Under the pieces are notes generated by a model. It did not search any database, was not told the DNA's origin, and saw nothing but the letters and a program-made list of their open reading frames with translations. A stretch of 64,000 nt of DNA, from NCBI GenBank assembly GCA_050698355.1, contig JBOHBN010000209.1, positions 663 to 64,662 of the forward strand. The letters run 5' to 3'. The translations under genes and the position numbers were made by a program. Below, piece by piece: positions 917-39,125 of this stretch (positions within the stretch are counted from its first letter, which is position 1; the number at the start of each line of letters is the position of its first letter). The DNA comes from Streptosporangiales bacterium. GTDB taxonomy: Bacteria > Actinomycetota > Actinomycetes > Streptosporangiales > WHST01.

Positions 917-2179
917 CTAGTGGCCCACTGAGGCGGCGCCCTTTTCGCCGACCAGGTTGCCGCGCTCGAACCGGTCGAGCCCGAAGGCGGCGATGATCTC
1001 CGGCGTGCGTCGCTCGGCGATGCAGGCGGCCATCGCCTCACCGCTCACGGGACCCGCCTTGAACCCGTAGGTGCCCCACCCGACGTCGACGTAGAAACCG
1101 TCGACCGGAGTACGCCCCATGATCGGGCTGAAGTCGGGTGTCATGTCGCACAGACCGGCCCACTGCCGCAGCAGCCGCATCTTCGACAGCGCCGGCATCA
1201 GCTGGAGGACGTGGCCCGCAAGGCCCTCGATGAACTCCAGCGAACCGCGCATCGAGTACGAGGTGAACGGGTCGACGCTCGCCCCGAAGACCAGCTCCCC
1301 GCGGTCGGTCTGGCTGACGTACACGTGTAGGGACCCGGAGACGATCACGGTGTGCAGGAACGGCCGCACCGGTTCTGTGACCGCGGCCTGCAGCGGGAAG
1401 GTCTCGATGGGCAACGGCAGGTCGACCATGTCCGCGATCGTCGTGGCCCAGCCGGCGGTCGCGTTCAGCACCGTGCCCGCGGCGATGCGCCCCCTGTCGG
1501 TGACCACACCTGTGACCCGGCCGCCGGACACCTCGATGTCCTGCACGGTGGTGTGCTGGTGGATGTGCACCCCAGCGGCGTGCGCGCCACGTGCGTACCC
1601 CCACACGACCGCATCGTGCCTGATGATGCCGCCCGGAGGGTGGTACAGCGCACCCTGGATGGGGTGCCGTGCCTGCGGTGAGACGTCGAGGTACGGCACC
1701 CGCCGCTTGATCTCGTCGGGGCCGATCACCTTGGAGTCGACGCCCTGCACCTTGTTCACCTCGGCGCGCCACCGCATCGTGCGCAGCGACGAGTCGGTGT
1801 GCGCGAGGGTCATGTGCCCGCGCTGGGCGAACATGACGTTGAAGTTCAGGTCGGCGGCGAGTCCCTCGTACAGCTTGACCGACCGGTCGTAGAACGCGAC
1901 GCCCTCGGGCGTGAGGTAGTTGGACCGCACGATCGCGGTGTTACGGCCGGAGCCGCCGCTGCCGATGTAGCTCTTGTCGAGCACGGCGACGTTGGTGATG
2001 CCGTGGTTCTTCGCCAGGTAGTACGCGGCTGCCAGGCCATGCACGCCACCGCCGATGATGACCACATCGTAGCTGGAGCGGAGCTCGTCTTCCTGCCATG
2101 CGGCCGGCCACTCCTTCTTGGCAAGACCCTGTTTTAGCAGCTGAAACGCGGAGTACTTCGGCCCGCGTGCTCTGCTCAC
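917..2179 (-). CDS. soxB: Sarcosine-oxidase-type beta subunit (FAD-dependent oxidoreductase). Probable N-methylglutamate dehydrogenase catalytic subunit.
   Basis: 420-aa ORF with YDVVIIGGGVHGLAAAYYLAK (GxGxxG) and SoxB-like N-terminus SAFQLLKQGL..WPAAW. GTG start at 2179 is preceded by GGGAGA. Confidence 0.9.
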   Translation of the reverse strand: MSRARGPKYSAFQLLKQGLAKKEWPAAWQEDELRSSYDVVIIGGGVHGLAAAYYLAKNHGITNVAVLDKSYIGSGGSGRNTAIVRSNYLTPEGVAFYDRSVKLYEGLAADLNFNVMFAQRGHMTLAHTDSSLRTMRWRAEVNKVQGVDSKVIGPDEIKRRVPYLDVSPQARHPIQGALYHPPGGIIRHDAVVWGYARGAHAAGVHIHQHTTVQDIEVSGGRVTGVVTDRGRIAAGTVLNATAGWATTIADMVDLPLPIETFPLQAAVTEPVRPFLHTVIVSGSLHVYVSQTDRGELVFGASVDPFTSYSMRGSLEFIEGLAGHVLQLMPALSKMRLLRQWAGLCDMTPDFSPIMGRTPVDGFYVDVGWGTYGFKAGPVSGEAMAACIAERRTPEIIAAFGLDRFERGNLVGEKGAASVGH

Positions 2180-3000: not shown

Positions 3001-3717
3001 ATGGCAAGCCCGTTGACGTCGATGCGCCTGACGGAGGGGGTCGCGGAGCACATCCGCGGCATGATCCACCGCGGCGAGCTCGGCCCCGGCGACCGGCTGC
3101 CGTCCGAGCGCGAGCTCGCCGAGGAGCTCGGTGTGGCGCGCGCGAGCCTGCGAGAGGCCATCAAGTCGCTCGCGGCGCGCGGGTACGTGGAGGTACGGCG
3201 GGGCGCGAACGGCGGGACGTTCGTCACCGAGCTGTCCAGGCCGTTCAGCGAATGGCGCGAGCACGTGCGCGAGCAGCACGGTGAGATGGACGAGATCATC
3301 GACTTTCGCACGGCGTTGGAGCAACACGCTGCCGGCTTGGCCGCGCAGCGCCGGGACCGTGGCGATCTCACCCAGCTACGAAACGCGATCACGATGATGG
3401 AGTCCGCGGAGAGCCGGGCAAAGTTCCGGCTGTCCGACTCGCGGTTCCACAGTGCGGTGGCCCGAGCGTCGAAGAACACCCGCCTGCAGACGGGTATCGA
3501 CCAGGTGCGCGGGGAGCTGTTCAGTCCGCACGACCTGCTCGAATACGTCGAGCCCGTGGCGGAGTCGCTGACCGATCACCAAGAGATCTACGGGGCGATC
3601 CGGGACAAGGACGCCGCGCGTGCGTCGTCACTCATGGCGGAGCACATCGAGCGTACTCGCGAGCAGCTGCGGGTGATCGTCTTGCAGGATCATCGGCGCA
3701 AGCGCAAGCCCCGGTGA
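3001..3717 (+). CDS. GntR/FadR-family transcriptional regulator
   Basis: This is the internal ATG of the 500-aa track ORF; the upstream part of that ORF is antisense shadow of the XRE gene. The winged HTH is GDRLPSERELAEELGVARASLREAIKSLAARGYVEVRRG, followed by an FCD-like helical C-terminus. It is divergent from the XRE-cupin gene. Confidence 0.85.
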   Translation: MASPLTSMRLTEGVAEHIRGMIHRGELGPGDRLPSERELAEELGVARASLREAIKSLAARGYVEVRRGANGGTFVTELSRPFSEWREHVREQHGEMDEIIDFRTALEQHAAGLAAQRRDRGDLTQLRNAITMMESAESRAKFRLSDSRFHSAVARASKNTRLQTGIDQVRGELFSPHDLLEYVEPVAESLTDHQEIYGAIRDKDAARASSLMAEHIERTREQLRVIVLQDHRRKRKPR

Positions 3718-3766
3718 TCATGAAACATGTGCGTAGGCATAGCTACGACAAGTTTTCATGATCACC
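3713..3766. promoter_or_regulatory. 13-bp inverted repeat GGTGATCATGAAA-N28-TTTCATGATCACC between the GntR gene and mgsA
   Basis: The arms are at 3713-3725 and 3754-3766 and are perfectly complementary. The spacer is unusually AT-rich for this DNA. The left arm covers the GntR stop codon. Confidence 0.4.
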
Positions 3767-3891
3767 CAGGGGGCCGGAGGGGCAACTCTTGACAGGCGAC
3801 TGCGCCGCAGTGTTGCATCGCTTCGGGTGATTGGTCTGTGGTTTGGACCTTAGACCCATGATCGGTCATGTGTCTCGAGGAGCGATGGCGA

Positions 3892-6879: not shown

Positions 6880-8250
6880 GTGCATCCGGACCTGAACGAA
6901 GAGCGCGAACGCATGGTCAAGCAGGCCGAGGAGGACGGAATCGAGTTCTTCCTCGCCATGTTCGTGGACATGCACGGCAAGCCGTGCGCGAAGATGGTCC
7001 CCGCGCAGAGCGTGGAGGCCCTGCTCACCGACGGGGCCGGGTTCGCCGGGTTCGCCGCAGGCGCGTTGGGCCAGGACCCGTCCGACCCGGACCTGATGGC
7101 GATCCCGGACCCCTCCTCCTACACCAGGTTGCCGTGGCGTCCACAGGTGGCGGTGCTGCACTGCGATCCGCACGTCGAAGGCAAGCCCTGGCCGTACGCC
7201 CCGCGGGTGATCCTGCGCCGGCAGATGGACCGGCTGCGCGATGAGCGCGGCTGGTCGTTCAAGACGGGCATCGAGGCCGAGTACATGCTCGTACGGCGTA
7301 CCGGCGACGGTGGTATCGAGCTTGCCGACGAGCTCGACTACTCCGAGAAGCCCTGCTACGAGGTCAAGGGCCTGAGCCGGATGTGGGACCACCTCTCCGC
7401 GGTGTCGTCACACCTGAACGAGCTCGGTTGGTCGAACTACGCGAACGACCACGAGGACGGCAACGGCCAGTTCGAGCAGAACTTCGAGTACGCCGACGCG
7501 CTCACCACCGCCGACCGGGCGATCTTCTTCCGGTACATGGTGCACATGCTGGCGCACGAGGCCGGCATGGCGGCCACGTTCATGCCGAAGCCGTTCAGCC
7601 GGTTCACCGGCAACGGCTTGCACCTGCACGTCAGCCTGTGGGACGGCTCCGACTCCGCGCTGTTCGAGACCTCCTCCGACGCGCGGGGGCTCGGCCTCTC
7701 CGAGCTCGCGTACCAGTTCATGGGCGGCCTCATCGAACACGGCCGGGCGATCGCGGGCGTGATCTGCCCGACGGTGAACTCCTACAAGCGCATCGGCGTC
7801 GGCGCGCCGAACTCGGGATCGACCTGGGCGCCCGCGTACAACGCCTACGGCGGCAACAACCGTACGGTCATGCTGCGGGTGCCCGAAGGAGGACGGATCG
7901 AGCACCGCGGCGTGGACGGTTCGGCGAACCCGTACCTCGCCTCCACCGCGCTGCTCGCCGCGGGCATGGACGGCGTCGCCAGGAACCTCAGCCCGGGCGA
8001 GCCTGTGCACGACAACCTGTACGCCTGCTCGCTGGCCGAGACCGAGGCACGGGGCATCAGCAGGCTGCCGGCCATCCTGCCCGAGGCGATGGACGAGCTG
8101 ACCCGCGACGACGTCTTGCGCGCGGCGCTGGGCCAGGTCCGCGGCGGCGACTACGTCGACTACTTCGCCGAGGTGAAGCGCGCCGAGTTCGTCGACTACC
8201 ACAGTCGCGTCAGCGACTGGGAGATCAACAAGTACCTCACCATGTTCTGA
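6880..8250 (+). CDS. gmaS: Glutamine-synthetase-family enzyme, gamma-glutamylmethylamide synthetase type
   Basis: In-frame GTG at 6880 preceded by GAGGAGGAG. The 5' 330 codons of the 785-aa track ORF are shadow. GS-like motifs are present: GIEFFLAMFVDMHGK, FKTGIEAEYMLV, NGLHLHVSLW, NSYKRI, RVPEGGRIEHRGVDGSANPYL. Confidence 0.8.
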   Translation: MHPDLNEERERMVKQAEEDGIEFFLAMFVDMHGKPCAKMVPAQSVEALLTDGAGFAGFAAGALGQDPSDPDLMAIPDPSSYTRLPWRPQVAVLHCDPHVEGKPWPYAPRVILRRQMDRLRDERGWSFKTGIEAEYMLVRRTGDGGIELADELDYSEKPCYEVKGLSRMWDHLSAVSSHLNELGWSNYANDHEDGNGQFEQNFEYADALTTADRAIFFRYMVHMLAHEAGMAATFMPKPFSRFTGNGLHLHVSLWDGSDSALFETSSDARGLGLSELAYQFMGGLIEHGRAIAGVICPTVNSYKRIGVGAPNSGSTWAPAYNAYGGNNRTVMLRVPEGGRIEHRGVDGSANPYLASTALLAAGMDGVARNLSPGEPVHDNLYACSLAETEARGISRLPAILPEAMDELTRDDVLRAALGQVRGGDYVDYFAEVKRAEFVDYHSRVSDWEINKYLTMF

Positions 8251-8315
8251 CCTGTTCGCGCACGCCATCGCGTTGTGCGGCGCTGGCACTAAGGGGGCCG
8301 CAGGGAGGTAAGCGC

Positions 8316-9848
8316 ATGTCTGAAACTGGCCCTGGATCGACGGGGACCTCGGACGTCTCGTTCGGCAACGGCGAGAGCCTGGACAAGGGCACCAACTGGT
8401 GGGGTGCGTTCGTCATCGGCCTCGCCGGGACGATCCTCGTCACCGGCTCCGCGCCGGTCTTCGTGACGACGTTCGGTGCGTCCTACGTCCCCATCATCGT
8501 CTTCTTCACCCTGACCGGTTGGGTGCTGTGCCTGCTGCTCGCGGAGCTGTCCGGCATGATGCCCGACCGCACCGGCGGGTCGCCGACGTACGCGGCGCCC
8601 GCGTACCGCAAGTGGCCGCGGCTCGCCGGCCACGTCAACGGCGTGACCTCGTGGATGTACTGGCTCGGGTGGACGCCGGTGGCGCCGCTGAACATGATCC
8701 TCGCGTCGTTCTACATCGGCGAGCTGTTCGGCCTGGACATGACCAAGGGGTTCACGCCGATCAGTACGTTCGTGTCCTGGTGGACGATCGGCATTGCCCT
8801 CGTCGGGATCGCGCTGCTGGCCTCGGCGGCGTACATGGGCATCAAGTTCGGCACCGGTGTCGCGACCGTGCTGGCGATCCTGGCGATGCTGCCGCTCACT
8901 TTCCTGTCCATCGGCTGGGTCATCAGGCCGTCGGCGGCCGACTGGAGCGAGCTGATCGGTTTCCACCAGCTGGACGGGTCGTCCTTCGTGAGCCCGCTCA
9001 TGGGGCATCCGGCGTGGCTGGTCTACCTGGCGTTCGCGTTCCCGTTGACATGGACCGTGATCGCGATGGAGGCTGCGGCGTGCTACATCGGCGAGTGCCG
9101 GAAACCGGACCGGGACGCGAAGGTCGCGATGACGCTGGAAGGCGGCTACGGCGTCTTCGTCTACACGCTGCTGCCGATCTCGTTCATCGTCGTGCTCGGC
9201 GCGTCCGCGCTCACCGACCCTGATCTGGTCGACCCGAAGACCATCTTTGTGACGTTCGCGAGCCGCATCTTCCCCGGCGTGGCCGGCCACATCCTGGAGT
9301 GGGCGATCGCCCTCATGCTGATCGTCGCGCTCGCGCTGTCGGCGTTGAACGCGTTGATGGGGTGTTCACGCGCGCTGTACCAGATCTCGAGCGACGGCGA
9401 CCTGCCGCGGTGGTGGCAGCACAAGAACAAGCACGGCATCCCCGATCACGCGATGTTCACCAACGTCGGCCTGTCCGTTCTCGGCATCTTCATGGGCGGC
9501 GCCGCGGAGATCTACGCGTTCTCCAACGTCGGTTACCTGGGCTCGTTCGTGCCCGTCCTGGTGGGGTTCTACCTGCTGCGCAAGTACTACCCGGACGCGC
9601 GGCGACCGTTCAAGCTGCCGGAGTTCTCCAAGTACATCGCGCTGGGGATGGCGGTGCTGTACTTCGTCATCTGGTTGTTCGGCGGCATCATCTACTCGTT
9701 CATCGGCGGCAACGCCATCTACTACTTCCTCGGCTGGGTGATCGCCCTGTTGTACCTGCCGCTGTACTGGTACCGCACCCGGGTAGAGGACAAGAAGCAC
9801 GGGGCGGCCCTGGTTGCGACCGGGTCGCCGGGTGGGGAGGACCGATGA
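8316..9848 (+). CDS. APC-superfamily amino-acid/amine permease
   Basis: ATG at 8316 follows AGGGAGG. It is a polytopic hydrophobic protein of about 510 aa (WWGAFVIGLAGTILV.., 12 TM-like segments). The upstream part of the 821-aa track ORF is shadow of gmaS. Confidence 0.85.
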   Translation: MSETGPGSTGTSDVSFGNGESLDKGTNWWGAFVIGLAGTILVTGSAPVFVTTFGASYVPIIVFFTLTGWVLCLLLAELSGMMPDRTGGSPTYAAPAYRKWPRLAGHVNGVTSWMYWLGWTPVAPLNMILASFYIGELFGLDMTKGFTPISTFVSWWTIGIALVGIALLASAAYMGIKFGTGVATVLAILAMLPLTFLSIGWVIRPSAADWSELIGFHQLDGSSFVSPLMGHPAWLVYLAFAFPLTWTVIAMEAAACYIGECRKPDRDAKVAMTLEGGYGVFVYTLLPISFIVVLGASALTDPDLVDPKTIFVTFASRIFPGVAGHILEWAIALMLIVALALSALNALMGCSRALYQISSDGDLPRWWQHKNKHGIPDHAMFTNVGLSVLGIFMGGAAEIYAFSNVGYLGSFVPVLVGFYLLRKYYPDARRPFKLPEFSKYIALGMAVLYFVIWLFGGIIYSFIGGNAIYYFLGWVIALLYLPLYWYRTRVEDKKHGAALVATGSPGGEDR

Positions 9849-10366
9849 CGACCACACCTCGGCGCACCCTGGCGCCTCCCCGGCGCACGGCGGACGCGGG
9901 CGGCGACACCGGTCATGCGGATGATGCGGCGGCGCCCGCGGCACGGGTGCTGCTCGCGTCGGTCGACGGGTGGTTCAGCCGGCAGGCACTCCGCGAGGCG
10001 ATGCGGCTCGCCGGGCCACGCGGGGGTGTCTACGTCGTGAGCACCGCCCGCGTCTACGGTTCCGGGTTCGGCCTGCCGCACCCGGGCCTGTACCCCAACC
10101 GCAGCGAACGGGAGGCGCACAGGAAGGCGGTCGCGGACGCCGTACGGGCGGTCGAGCGGACCGGGCGTGCCGCGCGCGGTGAGGTACTCGCCACCCGGCA
10201 CGCGGCGAAGATGGTGGCGCGCAGCGCGCGCAAGCAGGGCTGTACCCGGATAGTGGTCGGCGCCGCGCCCCGACCCCGGTTCACCATGCTCAGCTGGGCC
10301 GGCGAGCCGTACCGGCTGGAGCGGCGAGCCAAGGTGCCGGTGCACCTGGTCGTCGACGACAGCTGA
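9845..10366 (+). CDS. Universal-stress-protein-like (adenine-nucleotide alpha-hydrolase fold) protein
   Basis: ATG at 9845 overlaps the permease stop (ATGA). The pattern RVLLASVDGW...AKMVARSARKQGCTRIVVGAA..VPVHLV fits the USP strand pattern. The family call is weak. Confidence 0.55.
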   Translation: MTTTPRRTLAPPRRTADAGGDTGHADDAAAPAARVLLASVDGWFSRQALREAMRLAGPRGGVYVVSTARVYGSGFGLPHPGLYPNRSEREAHRKAVADAVRAVERTGRAARGEVLATRHAAKMVARSARKQGCTRIVVGAAPRPRFTMLSWAGEPYRLERRAKVPVHLVVDDS

Positions 10367-10408
10367 GCTTGCCGCCTTTTGGGGGCCCTACCAAGATCCG
10401 TTCTTTCC

Positions 10409-10442
10409 GGCCGCGACGCGCAGGTTTCTACGCGTTGCGGCC
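10409..10442 (+). terminator. GC-rich hairpin downstream of the USP gene
   Basis: GGCCGCGACGCG-N10-CGCGTTGCGGCC (one G.U pair). It is nested inside an outer pairing CAAGATC (10392-10398) / GATCTTG (10453-10459). Confidence 0.5.
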
Positions 10443-10465
10443 AGGCGAAACAGATCTTGAACCCG

Positions 10466-10496
10466 GAGCTCGGTGCACTCGCCTCAGCGCGCTCGG
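10466..10496. repeat. Left copy of a perfect 31-bp direct repeat flanking the RelE/antitoxin cassette
   Basis: GAGCTCGGTGCACTCGCCTCAGCGCGCTCGG is identical to 11065-11095. It contains the last codons and stop of the toxin gene. Confidence 0.95.
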
Positions 10497-10762
10497 TACG
10501 CCGTCGATCGGTGGCGGATATCCAACACGACGACGGTGTGCGTGCGGTCGTCGACCTCGTACAGCACGCGCCAGTCGCGGCCGAGCCGAGCGCTGTAGAT
10601 GCCGACGAGTTCCTCGCCGAGCGGTTTGCCGACGCGGCGCGGGTTGTCGAGCAAGGGGCCGGTGATGAATTCTGCGGCCGCGGTGGCGACTTCAGGTGGT
10701 AGCCGTTCGCTAAGGGCACGACGAGCTGGCGGTGCCGTACCGAGTTCGTACGGCTCATTCAC
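10484..10762 (-). CDS. RelE/ParE-family type II toxin
   Basis: 92 aa ending ...GKPLGEELVGIYSARLGRDWRVLYEVDDRTHTVVVLDIRHRSTAYRAR, the typical RelE/ParE C-terminal beta-sheet. Its start overlaps the antitoxin stop by 4 nt. Confidence 0.8.
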   Translation of the reverse strand: MNEPYELGTAPPARRALSERLPPEVATAAAEFITGPLLDNPRRVGKPLGEELVGIYSARLGRDWRVLYEVDDRTHTVVVLDIRHRSTAYRAR

Positions 10763-11016
10763 GAGGCGCGGCGCCGCGCCACCAAGGCGTGCACCGCGTC
10801 GGCGCCGTAGGTCACGTCACCCGAGCGCACCGCTTCGCGTGCTTCTGCGAGCGCGCGTAACGTGTCGGGCTCGGACTTGATCTCGGCAGTTTCCCGCAAT
10901 GCAAGGTAGGTCTCGACTGCGTGCAGGACCGTTTGGTGCACGCTTCGGTGGTCTTCCTCGGCGGCCGCGCGCAACTCCGCCTCGAGATTGGTCGGAAGCC
11001 GTAACGTCATTGCCAT
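10759..11016 (-). CDS. Ribbon-helix-helix-type antitoxin
   Basis: 85 aa MAMTLRLPTNLEAELRAAAEEDHRSVHQTVLHAVETYL (RHH N-terminus). It is translationally coupled to the toxin. Confidence 0.7.
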   Translation of the reverse strand: MAMTLRLPTNLEAELRAAAEEDHRSVHQTVLHAVETYLALRETAEIKSEPDTLRALAEAREAVRSGDVTYGADAVHALVARRRAS

Positions 11017-11064
11017 ACTATTATGGTAGCAGAATGCACCATTAAGGTAAGCCCGGCCCGTGGC
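11017..11064 (-). promoter_or_regulatory. Putative promoter/operator of the TA cassette
   Basis: This is an AT-rich patch unusual for this DNA. Read on the minus strand it is TTAATG-N16-TAATAG, about 7 nt before the ATG, so the mRNA could be leaderless. It also carries short palindromes CCATA..TATGG and TGGT-N10-ACCA. Confidence 0.35.
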
Positions 11065-11095
11065 GAGCTCGGTGCACTCGCCTCAGCGCGCTCGG
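11065..11095. repeat. Right copy of the 31-bp direct repeat
   Basis: Identical to 10466-10496. It contains the last codons (..RAR) and stop of the AraC-family gene. Confidence 0.95.
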
Positions 11096-11865
11096 CCGGT
11101 GCGTCCCGGATCGTGCGGCGTCGAGAGGGCCGCGAGCGCGACGAGTACGGGCGGCTCCGTCGGATCGTGCGCGCGCAGCCGAACATCGCGGTGCAGGCAT
11201 TCGCCGCCGGTGCGCACCCGGCACGGTTCGAGCGCGGCGCCAACCAGCGTGCGGGCGTCTGGGAGCAGCCGCCAGAGCGCGTCGGTGCCGGCGGGGAAAC
11301 CAGCAGCGAGCAGCCGGTAGCTGCCGATGGGCATGCCCGTGATTTCGAACGGGCCCGGCCCCGGGAGGTACGCGCCCGCGACCGGACGCGCCTGCGCGAT
11401 CGCCTGTGGGAACAGCCCCACGTAGACCCCATCGCAGCCGGGGTCCTCGATCCGGCCGCGTACGACCGCACCCGGCGCTGGGCCGGGCACTGCGACACGG
11501 GCCGCGGGCTTGTCACCGGCGCTGTCCGGCAACCGCTGGAAGCCGACCGGGTTGACGCCGACCAGCTTGCTGAACCGGGACGAGAACGTGCCGAGGCTGT
11601 TGAACCCGACCTCGAAGCAGACGTCGGTCACCGACAGGTCGGTGCGAAGCAGCAGCTGTTTCGCGCGCTCGAAACGCAACGCCCGGCGGAACTCACCTGG
11701 GGGTACGCCGACGGTCGAGCGGAACAGCCGGGCCAGGTGGAACGGGCTGTAACCGACGGCGTCGCCCAGGTCCGTCAGCGTGAGCCGGGCATGGAGACCT
11801 GTCCGCAGTACCTCGACCGACCGGGCGATCACGCCCGGATGCTCGTCGGCGAGTGTGTCCGTCAT
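11083..11865 (-). CDS. AraC-family transcriptional regulator (N-terminal HTH, C-terminal effector domain)
   Basis: 260 aa with the double HTH LTLTDLGDAVGYSPFHLARLFRSTVGVPPGEFRRALRFERAKQLLLRTDLSVTDVCFEVGFNSLGTFSSRFSKLVG. Confidence 0.85.
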   Translation of the reverse strand: MTDTLADEHPGVIARSVEVLRTGLHARLTLTDLGDAVGYSPFHLARLFRSTVGVPPGEFRRALRFERAKQLLLRTDLSVTDVCFEVGFNSLGTFSSRFSKLVGVNPVGFQRLPDSAGDKPAARVAVPGPAPGAVVRGRIEDPGCDGVYVGLFPQAIAQARPVAGAYLPGPGPFEITGMPIGSYRLLAAGFPAGTDALWRLLPDARTLVGAALEPCRVRTGGECLHRDVRLRAHDPTEPPVLVALAALSTPHDPGRTGRAR

Positions 11866-11907
11866 CGGTGGCGACTGTACGGGCGAGTACGGGCGGCTCC
11901 ACCCGCG

Positions 11908-16529: not shown

Positions 16530-16817
16530 TCACGCCAGCAGGGTTCCGAGCGGGCCGAGATCGATGTTCAGGTCCTCGGGGTTGATGCCGTACCGCTCCT
16601 CCAGCTGTGTCATGGCCTGCTCGAGCCGCATCAGCCCACGCCCGAGGTCCTCGACCTGCTCCTCGGTCAGGTCGCCCTGGTCGACGCGGCGCAGCGCCTG
16701 CCGTTCCATCAGCTGCCGCACCAGCTCCACGATGGTGAGCACCAGCCGCAGCAGGTCGCGCTCGACCGCGTCCGGGTCGGTCTCCAACCGGTGGGGAAGG
16801 GTGCGTACGTCACTCAT
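16530..16817 (-). CDS. gvpK: Gas vesicle protein K
   Basis: 95 aa with RDLLRLVLTIVELVRQLMERQALRRVDQGDLTEEQVEDLGRGLMRLEQAM, a classic GvpK core. Confidence 0.85.
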   Translation of the reverse strand: MSDVRTLPHRLETDPDAVERDLLRLVLTIVELVRQLMERQALRRVDQGDLTEEQVEDLGRGLMRLEQAMTQLEERYGINPEDLNIDLGPLGTLLA

Positions 16818-17005
16818 GTCTCTGCCTCCAGCTCGCTGCGTACGGACATCAGCAGCGCGTGCAGCTTGATCTGGACGAGGTCGACGCCGGACAACGAGAT
16901 GGTGATGTCGCCGGCGAGCACGACCCCCGTGCCCAGCAGCCGGTCGAGCAGGTCGACCAGCGCGACCTGCCGCCTCGGCTGCTCGGTGACGGTGTCAGCT
17001 GTCAT
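16814..17005 (-). CDS. gvpS: Gas vesicle protein S (small GvpA/J-family member)
   Basis: Internal ATG at 17005 of the 192-aa track ORF gives a 63-aa product MTADTVTEQPRRQVALVDLLDRLLGTGVVLAGDITISLSGVDLVQIKLHALLMSV. It overlaps both neighbours by 4 nt. Confidence 0.8.
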   Translation of the reverse strand: MTADTVTEQPRRQVALVDLLDRLLGTGVVLAGDITISLSGVDLVQIKLHALLMSVRSELEAET

Positions 17006-17763
17006 GCGTTCTCCAGCTCCGCGAACGAGTAGGGGGGCCACGGCCCGGTCAGCTCGAACCGTACGCTCGGCAGCCGCGACTCCAACCGGCTGACGGCTGC
17101 CTCGAGGTCCCCGGTTCGGTCCCGTTCCACCAGGTACGCACCGTTGAGGATCATCCGGCCCGCGTAACCGCCGAGCCGCTGGTCCTGCGCCGGATGGCGC
17201 CGGCTCGCCACGCCGACCGCGGCCAGCTCGGCGTGGATCTCCTCGCCCGTCGCGGCGGCCGCCCGCTCGTGCTCCTCGCGCTGCGTGGTCTCGGCCCGGC
17301 GCCGCTGCAGGTACGCGGTCCCGGACTCCGTGGCGGAGTCCTCCGGGACGCTGCGCGCGGCGGCGTCGTCCAAGTACGCCTTGATGCCGCACTCGGTGCG
17401 GCCGTCCAGCCGGGCGAGGGTGCTCTCGATGCTGTCGCGCCGCTCGTCCAGCGTGCGGCGCACCCCGTCGTCGTCCAGATAGACAGTGGCGAGGCGCAGC
17501 GGCGCGACCGAACCGCTCGCCGCCAGCGCCCCCACGACCTGGTTGTGTGCACGCGCGACCCGTTCGAGCCAGCCGAGATCCTCCAGGTTCGCGCGCAGCG
17601 CCTCCTCGCCGAACTCATCCAGGCTCACCGTGCTGACCGCCGCGGCGAGGCCGTCCTGGTCGAGGGTTCGCACCGGCGCGTCCGAAACCCCGCGTACGTC
17701 CTCGAGGGAAGCGGCGGCCTCGCCGCGCGTGATCGCGTAGAGGTAGGTGCCGGTCTCAGCCAT
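17002..17763 (-). CDS. gvpL: Gas vesicle protein L (GvpF/L family)
   Basis: YLYAITRG...VRTLDQDGLAAAVSTVSLDEFGEEAL..NLEDLGWLERVARAHNQVV matches the GvpL/F family. Start is ATG 17763, or GTG 17772 as an alternative. Confidence 0.8.
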   Translation of the reverse strand: MAETGTYLYAITRGEAAASLEDVRGVSDAPVRTLDQDGLAAAVSTVSLDEFGEEALRANLEDLGWLERVARAHNQVVGALAASGSVAPLRLATVYLDDDGVRRTLDERRDSIESTLARLDGRTECGIKAYLDDAAARSVPEDSATESGTAYLQRRRAETTQREEHERAAAATGEEIHAELAAVGVASRRHPAQDQRLGGYAGRMILNGAYLVERDRTGDLEAAVSRLESRLPSVRFELTGPWPPYSFAELENA

Positions 17764-18124
17764 CGCGGTCACCCCCTTCGTCTGTACCGGGTTCCAGCGC
17801 CGACACGCGCTGGCGCAGGCGCTCGTTCTCCTCCTCCAGCTCGCGGTTACGCGCGGCAGAGCTCAGCGAGGGGTCGTCTTTCCACCAGTCGATCCCCATC
17901 TCGGCCGCCTTGTCGACCGACGCGACCAGCAGGCGGATCTTCACTGTCAGCAGCTCGATGTCGAGCAGGTTGACCTTGATGTCGCCCGCGACGACGATGC
18001 CCTTGTCGAGGACACGTTCCAGCACGTCGGCGAGGTTCGCCGGCTGGGGAGCCGGCGTCGTCGACGCCCTGCTGGCCGGGGCCTGGTAGCCGTCGCGGCC
18101 ACGAGCGAGCTGGTCCACGGTCAC
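17756..18124 (-). CDS. gvpJ: Gas vesicle protein J
   Basis: 122 aa with NLADVLERVLDKGIVVAGDIKVNLLDIELLTVKIRLLVASVDKAAEMGIDWW (GvpA/J fold). Confidence 0.85.
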   Translation of the reverse strand: MTVDQLARGRDGYQAPASRASTTPAPQPANLADVLERVLDKGIVVAGDIKVNLLDIELLTVKIRLLVASVDKAAEMGIDWWKDDPSLSSAARNRELEEENERLRQRVSALEPGTDEGGDRDG

Positions 18125-18441
18125 TCCTCGTGTAGTTGGGCGCGGGTGTACCGCCTGAGCCGCCGGTACGAGAGCAGGTCACCGTTCTCGTCCAGGTCGG
18201 CCTGGTAGACGGCCATGACATCGGCGGTCTCCGGAACCCGGTGGATCTCCAGGACCTCCACCTCCAGCTGCCAGCCGTCGTCCGTACGCGACAGCGCCGT
18301 GACCGCCTCCGCGTTACGCTGCGTCAGCTCGGCCAGCTGCTGTGCGCCCGTCCGCGCCACGGCGGCGGCTCCCCGCTTGCGGCCCGCGGTTCGCGACTGC
18401 GTGCGCCCTTGCTTGTTGGTGTTCTCGTCGGCGGTCGTCAT
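18121..18441 (-). CDS. gvpO: Gas vesicle protein O
   Basis: 106 aa with AQQLAELTQRNAEAVTALSRTDDGWQLEVEVLEIHRVPETADVMAVYQADLDENGDLLSYRRLRRY, a typical GvpO. Confidence 0.8.
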   Translation of the reverse strand: MTTADENTNKQGRTQSRTAGRKRGAAAVARTGAQQLAELTQRNAEAVTALSRTDDGWQLEVEVLEIHRVPETADVMAVYQADLDENGDLLSYRRLRRYTRAQLHEE

Positions 18442-18463
18442 TGGCTCCCTCCGTCCGCCGGCC

Positions 18464-18688
18464 TCATGCCCGCAGCAAGCGGGCCATCAGCTGGTTCTCC
18501 AGCTCGTCGGCCTCTTCGTCGCTGAGCACGCCCGCCGCGCGGGCCTCGTCGACCTCCTCCAGCTGGCGTCGGATCGTCGCCGGGTCGTAGTACTCGGCCT
18601 CTGCCTGCTCGCGTACCCGCTCCGCGATCCACGCGGTCGCGCGTACCGGTGCAAGCGGCAACGTCAGCAGTCCGGTGAACAAGCCCAT
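18464..18688 (-). CDS. gvpG: Gas vesicle protein G
   Basis: 74 aa MGLFTGLLTLPLAPVRATAWIAERVREQAEAEYYDPATIRRQLEEVDEA..., a GvpG signature. Confidence 0.85.
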   Translation of the reverse strand: MGLFTGLLTLPLAPVRATAWIAERVREQAEAEYYDPATIRRQLEEVDEARAAGVLSDEEADELENQLMARLLRA

Positions 18689-18689
18689 G

Positions 18690-19442
18690 TCAGTCGCCCG
18701 GTACGAAGTCGTACGGTGCCTGTGGACCGATCAGGCGCAGCCTCATCCGTGCCGACTCTCGCTTGCCGAGGCTCTCCACCGCTTCCTCCAGGCCCGTGTG
18801 CCCGGTGCGGTCCACGAGCAAGGCGGCGTCCAGCACGTCCTCTGGCGTCCCCGGCTCGCGGCTCTCGACGGCGCGGATGTGAGGATCAAGCGCGTCGAGC
18901 ATCGCCGCCGCGTCGGCCGCGGCCTTGCGGCCCAGCACTCCGACGACGAGTTCGCCCAAGCGGACGCTCTGCCCGTACACCGGCTGTTCTCGCGTGGCGG
19001 TGCTGAGGTGCTCGATCTCCGGGTCCTCTGCGACGATCTCGCGCAGCAACGGCTCCTCGAGGTAGCGAGCCCGCAGCGTGTACTGCACCGCTCCCGCGAG
19101 CTCGGCGAGCAGCTCGGCATACCGGTCGAGCGCGGGCCCCAAGCCCGCCTCGAGGGTGCCCTCGTCCGCGACGGTGCCGAACCGCAGCGGCAGAACATCG
19201 CTTCGCGCCGCGACCGCGTCGAGCACCCGGCTGTGCGCGAGCAGGTCGTCGCGGGTCGTGATGTCCCGGCCGGCCTCGATCGGGCTGGCGAGCAGCGCCA
19301 GGTCAGCGGCATCCAGCAGCACGAGGTCGCGCGCGCCGCCGACACCCACCAGATCGCCCGGAAGGTCACCGCGTGCGGCCATGACGCCGTACAGGTAGTA
19401 CGCGGTCGCCTGGCTCGCCTGGCTCGCCTGCGCCGCGGTCAT
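18690..19442 (-). CDS. gvpF: Gas vesicle protein F (GvpF/L family)
   Basis: 250 aa with [49 protein letters not shown] overlap with gvpA. Confidence 0.8.
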
Positions 19443-38544: not shown

Positions 38545-38742
38545 ATGGCCATGACGCTGCGGCTCAGTGACGAACAGACCGAGGCACTGCGCGAGACCGC
38601 CGAGCGCGAGGGACGTTCCATGCAGGACGTCGCCCGTGCGGCTATCGAGGAGTACGTCGGCCGCCGGTCCAGGTTGCGCGACGAGATTCTCGACCGTGTG
38701 ATGGAGCGCGACGCGGGCCTGCTCGCGCGCTTGGCCGAGTGA
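38545..38742 (+). CDS. RHH/Phd-type antitoxin
   Basis: 65 aa MAMTLRLSDEQTEALRETAEREGRSMQDVARAAIEEYV. 4-nt overlap with the doc-like gene. Confidence 0.75.
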   Translation: MAMTLRLSDEQTEALRETAEREGRSMQDVARAAIEEYVGRRSRLRDEILDRVMERDAGLLARLAE

Positions 38743-39125
38743 TGCCGGAGTATTTGACCGTCGAGGACCTGATGGTGGCGGCTCGTCGTTACCTCGGCGC
38801 CGAGCCAGAGATCCGCGATGCCGGCCTCCTGGACTCGGCCGTCGCGCGGCCACTAACGACCGTGTTCGGGCAAGAGGCGTACCCAGACCTCGACTCGAAG
38901 GGGGCGGCGCTGTTGCACTCGATTGTGGGCAACCATGCCCTCGTCGACGGCAACAAAAGGCTCGGCTGGACGGCGACGCAGCTCTTCTACGGGCTCAACG
39001 GGTACGAGCTGGTCGCCGATGAGGACGCCGAGTACGAGTGCGTCATCGGGGTGGCGGCCGGGCGCATCGACGACGTCACCGAGATCGCGAGCAGGCTCGC
39101 TGGTTGGAGGCGGCCGTGGCGATGA
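38739..39125 (+). CDS. doc: Fic/Doc-family toxin (death-on-curing type)
   Basis: 128 aa with the Fic-motif variant HALVDGNKRLG and the Doc-like context AALLHSIVGNHALVDGNKRLGWTA. Confidence 0.85.
   Translation: MMPEYLTVEDLMVAARRYLGAEPEIRDAGLLDSAVARPLTTVFGQEAYPDLDSKGAALLHSIVGNHALVDGNKRLGWTATQLFYGLNGYELVADEDAEYECVIGVAAGRIDDVTEIASRLAGWRRPWR

Follow-up and report, generated by a model that had tools for sequence, protein, structure and literature searches.

The window analysed here, a 64-kb stretch of contig JBOHBN010000209.1, is a metagenome assembly, specifically a contig of a Streptosporangiales metagenome-assembled genome (MAG). It carries a two-gene toxin-antitoxin (TA) cassette bracketed by a perfect 31-bp direct repeat at the 3' end of an AraC-family regulator gene. 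The cassette is best read, from its sequence, as an ordinary horizontally acquired RelBE-type type II TA operon, composed of a probable ribbon-helix-helix (RHH) antitoxin and a predicted RelE-like mRNA-interferase toxin. The original prediction took the repeat for a target sequence at the end of AraC that was duplicated when the cassette inserted. The conserved ends of the toxin family, the variable tails of AraC relatives and the closest related locus, referred to as L082, all speak against this explanation. Our favoured reading, to which we assign a probability of roughly 0.55, is that the second, AraC-side copy would be a secondary duplication derived from the cassette itself and thus the scar of a local rearrangement.

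The repeat and the operon it encloses

10466..10496: left repeat copy, covering the third base of the toxin Tyr89 codon, R90-A91-R92, the stop codon (10486-10484) and 18 nt of 3' flank
10484..10762, minus strand: RelE/ParE-superfamily toxin, RelE-like, 92 aa (PF05016, 34.6 bits, cutoff 23)
10759..11016, minus strand: antitoxin, 85 aa, probably ribbon-helix-helix, with a 4-nt overlap with the toxin start
11017..11041, minus strand: predicted compact conserved promoter/operator TGGTGCATTCTGCTACCATAATAGT, abutting the ATG and containing nested palindromes; a CATAAT-like -10 box lies ~5-7 nt ahead of the start codon
11042..11064, minus strand: 23-nt locus-specific spacer between the right repeat copy and the promoter, found neither in L082 nor in any family locus
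11065..11095: right repeat copy, covering the last three AraC codons (RAR), the stop codon (11085-11083) and the identical 18 nt
11083..11865, minus strand: AraC-family regulator, 260 aa (HTH_18, 1.6e-22), with the conserved end ...EPPVLVALAALSTP followed by a variable tail

The 31-mer GAGCTCGGTGCACTCGCCTCAGCGCGCTCGG is present in two exact copies on the plus strand of the 64-kb window, at 10466-10496 and 11065-11095, which lie 599 bp apart and differ by 0 mismatches. This part of the original prediction was confirmed by both an exact and a mismatch search of the window. No third copy with up to 3 mismatches was found in the window, and 100 shuffles gave 0 matches. The bases adjoining the two copies differ on either side, and no residual similarity was detected in the 60-80 nt flanks, where 12/60 and 17/60 positions agree in register and local alignment stays at the level of shuffles. 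The repeat is therefore a sharp-edged duplication of exactly 31 bp and not the core of an older, longer one. Read on the minus strand, both copies consist of C CGA GCG CGC TGA followed by 18 nt, and the toxin and AraC open reading frames (ORFs) both end in R-A-R-stop. The coding part of the repeat thus amounts to 13 nt, while alignment with family loci shows the 18-nt tail to be peculiar to this locus. At the right copy, the tail together with the next 3 nt (GCC) forms a 7-bp hairpin after the AraC stop; this hairpin is incomplete at the toxin-side copy.

The possibility raised earlier that the 31-mer or the cassette recurs elsewhere was not borne out, as no additional copy of either was found in the window or in the fetched related loci, which comprise 1.27 Mb in total. 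An approximate search allowing up to 7 mismatches across the same loci likewise returned no 31-mer, and the stop codon plus 18-nt tail gave 0 matches in a metagenome collection.

The interval between the two copies is a 568-bp insert that holds the toxin gene, the antitoxin gene and a promoter patch of lower guanine-cytosine (GC) content (10950-11049, GC 0.55 compared with ~0.7-0.77 around it) and nothing else, in agreement with the initial description. The only internal pair of inverted repeats sits inside the antitoxin gene. No inverted repeat pairs the two cassette ends, unlike in transposons, insertion sequences or miniature inverted-repeat transposable elements. A 31-bp repeat is also far longer than typical transposon target duplications.

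The protein identities proposed at the outset were upheld, with a difference in strength between the two partners. The toxin scores above the cutoff of the ParE_toxin profile PF05016 and resembles both a solved RelE (PDB 9g12, 1.2e-20) and Rv2866 of Mycobacterium tuberculosis (PDB 3g5o, 5.8e-17), with residues 3-91 aligned. The antitoxin is RHH-like by profile matches that fall below threshold, namely Arc with 18.0 bits (cutoff 20.4) and an NCBIfam RelB-like antitoxin with 18.1 bits (cutoff 50). Most of the 80 family loci inspected for partner genes and tandem arrays encode a homologous antitoxin partner that precedes the toxin. The operon resembles actinobacterial RelBE type II modules, such as M. 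tuberculosis RelBE2 (Rv2865-Rv2866, 3g5o) and the RelE of 9g12, in its 92-aa RelE-fold toxin with a C-terminal ...R-S-x-x-Y-R, its small upstream antitoxin gene with a 4-nt overlap and its predicted palindromic operator over the promoter. Its chromosomal intergenic site and its plasmid-borne relatives are further shared features. There is no essential difference from these modules; the RHH assignment of the antitoxin comes from below-cutoff matches, and the ATG follows the promoter directly.

An alignment of upstream regions revealed the motif GGTGCA..TGATACCATAAnGGT, which directly abuts the antitoxin ATG and is conserved in >50 family loci. We predict that it serves as both promoter and operator and that the operon is autoregulated. 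The TA transcript is probably leaderless, because the promoter ends directly at the ATG, with the -10-like box only a few nt away. A generic sigma-70 promoter scan returned no match.

Direction of copying and exchange of the cassette

The family of the toxin indicates which gene the shared end belongs to. A search with the toxin yielded 1123 matches, the best 120 of which (77-87% identity) were used for length and C-terminus counts. Among these 120 relatives, 112 are exactly 92 aa long and nearly all end in ...AYR-x-R-stop (RPR 33, RSR 19, RAR 15). Alignment with the two solved toxins, RelE and Rv2866, continues as far as ...SYR, which places Tyr89 and Arg90 among the conserved residues, and the repeat starts within the Tyr89 codon. 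When the cassette was compared by blastn with >60 family loci in unrelated contexts, homology extended from the operator (~11031-11048) to the toxin stop (10478-10494) and no further. The 13 coding nucleotides of the repeat are native toxin sequence, because family homology reaches exactly to the toxin stop. The statement that each copy holds RAR, the stop and 18 nt therefore stands, while the interpretation of the left copy as a toxin end supplied by the target does not, these being the toxin's native codons.

AraC relatives share a common ...EPPVLVALAALS.P and then diverge into unrelated tails of 2-10 aa (...DRRSAGQ-stop, ...GHTTAL-stop and others). The closest relative of the locus, L082, is ~85% identical in the MFS transporter and AraC genes and has the same order of MFS, AraC, antitoxin and toxin in the same orientation; none nearer was found among the loci examined. 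Although the cassette occupies the same slot in L082, the right repeat copy is absent. In L082, 17 unrelated nt separate the end of the AraC body (GGAC[GA]CACC) from the -35-like TGGTGCA, compared with 56 nt in the window (GG, the 31-mer and 23 nt). Given the conserved toxin ends, the variable AraC tails and the lack of an AraC-side copy in L082, copying most likely proceeded from the cassette to AraC, whose ORF would owe its last three codons and stop to a duplicate of the toxin 3' end. The left, toxin-side copy would thus probably be the original and the right, AraC-side copy probably the derived one. For AraC to acquire a copy of the toxin end requires no coincidence. In the opposite direction, the target would have had to restore the family-typical toxin end by chance, in frame and at the right length, which we estimate to be roughly a 2% event or rarer. 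This estimate is based on the R-x-R ending, put at ~2% of the coding-like ORFs of the window; it occurs in 2/52, and this AraC is one of the two.

Bracketing repeats are not a general trait of the family. In 54 loci, the toxin 3' end (-40 to +120 nt around the stop) was compared with the 250 nt that precede the antitoxin. The longest shared word measured 31 in the window and 30 in one other locus, L123, and had a median of 8 in the rest, the same as in two controls. A bracketing repeat is thus at chance level in 52/53 other family loci. In L123, a direct repeat of 58 nt (1726-1783 and 2480-2537; 86% identical, with a 30-nt exact core) brackets a cassette of the same family. It lies 93 nt beyond the toxin stop, outside the ORF, and its sequence (GGGGTTCGAATCCCC...GGCTCCA) is similar to the 3' end of a tRNA, comprising T-arm and acceptor. 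The idea that it forms part of an intact tRNA or transfer-messenger RNA (tmRNA) gene was discarded, as ARAGORN and Rfam find none. By sequence, the L123 repeat looks like a decayed attachment (att)-type pair that encloses only TA genes, with a mechanism different from that of the window. Because 52/53 other loci are at chance level and L123 is of a different kind, the window's repeat is an isolated case rather than a sign of how the family moves.

The original proposal that the cassette inserted at the 3' end of AraC is well supported by deeper syntenic relatives, in which the slot holds either nothing or a glyoxalase gene. Specifically, L164 and L081 (~80% identity) carry a 130-131-aa glyoxalase-family gene between AraC and the Usp-like gene (L164 1521-1916; L081 1258-1650), and in the still deeper relatives L165-L167 AraC directly abuts convergent genes, leaving the slot empty. 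Since a glyoxalase gene replaces the TA cassette in L164 and L081, the convergent AraC-Usp gap is a variable slot that has been a recurrent site of insertion or replacement, occupied by TA genes, glyoxalase or nothing. On the Usp side, homology between the window and its relatives ends at ~10369-10377, and on the AraC side at ~11098 (L082) or 11109 (L164). An empty site in which the 31-mer is present once, as the original prediction would lead one to expect, was not found among the syntenic cassette-free relatives (L164/L081, L165-L167) with up to 7 mismatches, nor in any of the 1.27 Mb of related loci. When the AraC protein was compared with species-representative genomes in search of empty sites, the best match was only 41% identical. 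At 100% identity, the AraC protein is found in one NCBI record only, a Streptosporangiales MAG contig. L163, likely the contig adjoining L082, ends in a 20-nt palindrome ~100 nt beyond the Usp stop. The last 20 nt of L163 and a 13-nt stretch of L164 were considered as remnants of a toxin 3' end and rejected, being too short to tell from chance.

The cassette differs from its surroundings in composition and in its degree of divergence. GC content at third codon positions (GC3) is 0.75-0.78 in the TA genes compared with 0.85-0.94 in their neighbours. Third-codon-position identity between the window and L082 is 73% for MFS, 73% for AraC, 83% for the antitoxin and 96% for the toxin (toxin versus flanks, Fisher p = 2e-6). 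Comparison of window 10544-11041 with L082 3115-3609, whose flanks differ by ~15%, gave the following mismatches along the cassette:

11041-10978: 13/64 nt (~20%)
10977-10800: 9/178 nt (~5%)
10799-10544: 6/256 nt (~2%)

The toxin side is thus 96-97% identical between the two loci while the flanks are at ~85%. Because of its low GC3 and a toxin side far less diverged than the flanks, the cassette is concluded to have been acquired horizontally and exchanged recently, independently of the flanking chromosome. Its AraC-proximal edge matches the flanks in age, whereas the toxin side has a much more recent common ancestor. This mosaic pattern indicates recombination or re-acquisition of the toxin-side part. 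An argument that the repeat must be younger than the cassette in view of the ~15% divergence of the flanks was withdrawn, as the cassette itself is only 3-7% diverged and mosaic.

Origin of the second copy

Under the favoured reading, the AraC-side copy, located between the AraC body and the TA promoter, would equip the AraC ORF with a substitute tail of three residues and a stop. Three routes could have led there. In the first, the 599-bp unit would have been duplicated in tandem and its AraC-proximal copy then almost entirely deleted; in the second, a tandem or circular donor would have contributed an insert of ~1.05 unit lengths; in the third, a templated patch of ~36 nt (GG, the 31-mer and GCC) would have been copied during break repair from 599 bp away. 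The alignment CACC/ACGG common to the window and L082 suits the templated patch. The complete hairpin of the AraC-side tail mildly favours insertion from a circular or tandem donor, although its three additional bases carry little weight.

Several points weigh against a cassette-derived second copy or limit how far it can be specified. The three routes all fit, with no choice among them from sequence. The hairpin is complete only on the AraC side, which hints that the tail could be native there or to a donor unit. The L082 contig stops at toxin codon 73, so the 18-nt tail after its toxin cannot be read, and the L082 AraC gene is decayed by a ~208-bp 5' deletion, so the right copy may have been lost there secondarily. 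Arrays of the cassette in tandem on one strand are absent from the 80 family loci, where short tblastn matches to C-terminal fragments, with high E-values, were disregarded as noise. Further, because the cassette is mosaic and recently exchanged, insertion and duplication are not orderable in time with confidence. Lastly, the window comes from a MAG contig and represents assembled sequence without reads.

The explanation closest to the original prediction is an insertion with long target duplication, in which a staggered break at the AraC stop took up the 568-bp cassette and a 31-bp target was duplicated. Such events are known from restriction-modification (R-M) addiction modules, which insert without a recombinase and leave long target duplications with unique repeats of >30 bp, often spanning a stop codon (Nobusato et al. 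2000; Furuta, Abe & Kobayashi 2010, PMC2853133; PMC3874152). The window is similar in many respects: the insert is short (568 bp, compared with <20 kb), consists of two module genes only and lacks a recombinase or mobile-element genes nearby, while its direct repeat of 31 bp lies just above the 30-bp threshold and spans a stop codon. The cassette is also foreign by composition and absent from deeper relatives, and the tail hairpin is complete at the AraC-side copy. However, this model requires an insert that ends within toxin codon 89 and a target that happens to supply an in-frame R-x-R-stop at residue 92, an ending seen in ~2% of local ORFs. Unlike in the R-M cases, the repeat consists of the toxin's own 3' codons and thus of insert rather than target sequence. 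AraC relatives have tails unrelated to RAR, no relative carries a single-copy 31-mer or a corresponding empty site, and L082 has the cassette in the same slot without a second copy. Insert size and repeat length thus agree with the Furuta criteria, whereas the two decisive ones, an empty site and repeats made of target sequence, appear to go the other way, and we regard target duplication as unlikely.

Alternatively, the structure could be an artefact of assembly or strain mixture, such as a mis-traversed loop, a tandem array that was collapsed, or a join of variant alleles, for instance ones that differ in whether they carry the cassette. The contig belongs to an NCBI MAG, 31 is a k-mer length in common use, and the repeat is perfect, sharp-ended and present in no other record examined. 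Both junctions nevertheless yield sensible ORFs, namely a toxin of family length and an AraC within 2 residues of the lengths of its relatives, and NCBI protein numbering is consistent with two genes between Usp and AraC. A path that runs through a repeat node twice requires reads for both the AraC-to-repeat and the repeat-to-spacer junctions, and the final k of common metagenome assemblers is >31, enough to resolve a 31-bp repeat; both considerations count against an artefact, which we judge quite improbable. We give similarly little credence to an active, recombinase-independent mobile form, in which a 599-bp unit of promoter, antitoxin, toxin, tail and spacer would circularise or amplify via its 31-bp redundancy and reinsert as ~1.05 units. 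In its favour, the repeat derives from the cassette, the hairpin of tail plus GCC is complete only in the circular or tandem order toxin, tail, spacer, promoter, and the cassette is mobile over evolutionary time, as judged from its variable slot, its low GC3 and its conserved toxin side. A direct repeat of at least 30 bp also brackets L123, another family locus. However, the L123 repeat lies outside the toxin ORF and is an att scar similar to a tRNA 3' end, which points to a different mechanism, 52/53 other family loci lack a bracketing repeat, tandem arrays are missing from the 80 family loci, and neither cassette nor 31-mer has another copy in the window. Nor is an enzyme for such a process indicated.

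A broader version of this idea, in which the 31-bp redundancy is the footprint of recombinase-independent movement of minimal TA cassettes in general, is more doubtful still. A ~600-bp promoter-to-terminator unit would travel as a circle or concatemer, with slightly more than one unit re-entering the chromosome. If true, the unit's own end would be duplicated instead of the target, making this the donor-end counterpart of long-target-duplication R-M insertions. It is poorly understood how minimal type II TA operons, which lack their own recombinase, move from one chromosomal site to another, and a clean insertion footprint would be informative. This locus does not offer one, in that the repeat copies the cassette's own end, is known from a single MAG contig and does not recur in 52/53 sister loci. 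What it does represent is a well-documented TA cassette in a variable convergent intergenic slot with mosaic divergence. It also illustrates that, for a repeat running across two stop codons, the direction may be mistaken if the conserved C-terminus of the family is not consulted.

Least probable of all, in our estimation, is selection on the 31-mer or its 18-nt tail as a functional element, putatively a shared terminator or an extra antitoxin-binding site. The 7-bp tail hairpin lies just after the AraC stop, and GGTGCAC within the repeat resembles the GGTGCA of the conserved family operator. This 7-mer resemblance is, however, within chance, the 31-mer alone folds like shuffled sequences (z = -0.01), the hairpin is incomplete at the toxin-side copy, and a terminator scan gave no match. 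The region downstream of the toxin is not conserved in the family, and the tail was detected neither in relatives nor in the metagenome collection. Under the favoured reading, the repeat would have no function of its own beyond permitting recombinational loss of the cassette. Provided that the structure is real, its two direct repeat copies could mediate precise loss of the cassette by repeat-mediated deletion, which would leave the RAR-stop tail of AraC intact.

Integration by a dedicated enzyme finds little correspondence in the window. The repeat shares with att repeats at tRNA genes, as represented by L123, that a direct repeat of ~30 bp or longer brackets a cassette of the same family. 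Unlike in L123, it has no similarity to tRNA, and there is neither a tRNA gene in the window nor an integrase nearby. With regard to integrons, inspection by eye revealed no GTTRRRY core at either cassette boundary and the neighbouring genes are housekeeping genes, although no formal attC or intI search was made.

Flanking genes and neighbourhood

On the side opposite AraC, the slot is bounded by two further features:

9848..10366, plus strand: convergent Usp-like gene with a weak Usp match, bounding the variable slot; orthologs in L163 and L164 are 82-83% identical
10378..10465: lineage-specific spacer that separates the Usp-like gene from the toxin, without homology to the corresponding spacer of L163 or L164

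The spacer contains a 68-nt imperfect hairpin (10393-10460, CAAGATC...GATCTTG) with a predicted folding energy of -51 kcal/mol (z = -4.4). It is probably a bidirectional terminator, but could also be a small inserted element. No further copies of it were found in the window or the fetched loci, and a terminator scan identified no terminator-like site.

The surrounding genes are of the housekeeping type and encode an amino-acid permease, the Usp-like protein, an MFS transporter, an aminotransferase, an aldehyde dehydrogenase and glutamate-synthase-like proteins. No recombinase is encoded among the genes annotated between 3.9 and 17.8 kb, which bears out the earlier statement that none is adjacent to the cassette, and no tRNA or tmRNA gene was found in the whole window. 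The amino-acid permease region (7400-9450) has a lower GC content (0.59-0.67), and antisense shadow ORFs with a GC3 of 0.95-1.00 misled a simple GC3-based gene call there; the real permease gene is located at 8331-9845 on the plus strand. A gas-vesicle cluster encoding GvpK, GvpL/GvpF and small neighbouring ORFs is found ~6 kb from the TA cassette (16530-18700, minus strand).

In L082, the loss within AraC (L082 2494-2540 compared with window 11659-11907) removes the start and the first helix-turn-helix. What remains corresponds to a called ORF of 188 aa and probably represents a pseudogene beside the TA cassette.

A second, unrelated TA pair is encoded at 38545-39125 of the window (plus strand). 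It comprises a 65-aa RHH antitoxin (FitA-like_RHH, 2.3e-7; RHH_1) that overlaps by 4 nt with the gene of a 128-aa Fic/Doc-family protein, and the N-terminus of this antitoxin is 41% identical to the antitoxin of the RelE-like pair. Two loci of the RelE-like toxin family encode, within ~1 kb and on the opposite strand, an additional divergent toxin from the same superfamily (48-50% identity), at 3519-3776 (minus strand) in L115 and at 1046-1303 (minus strand) in L116. These two loci are small TA clusters.

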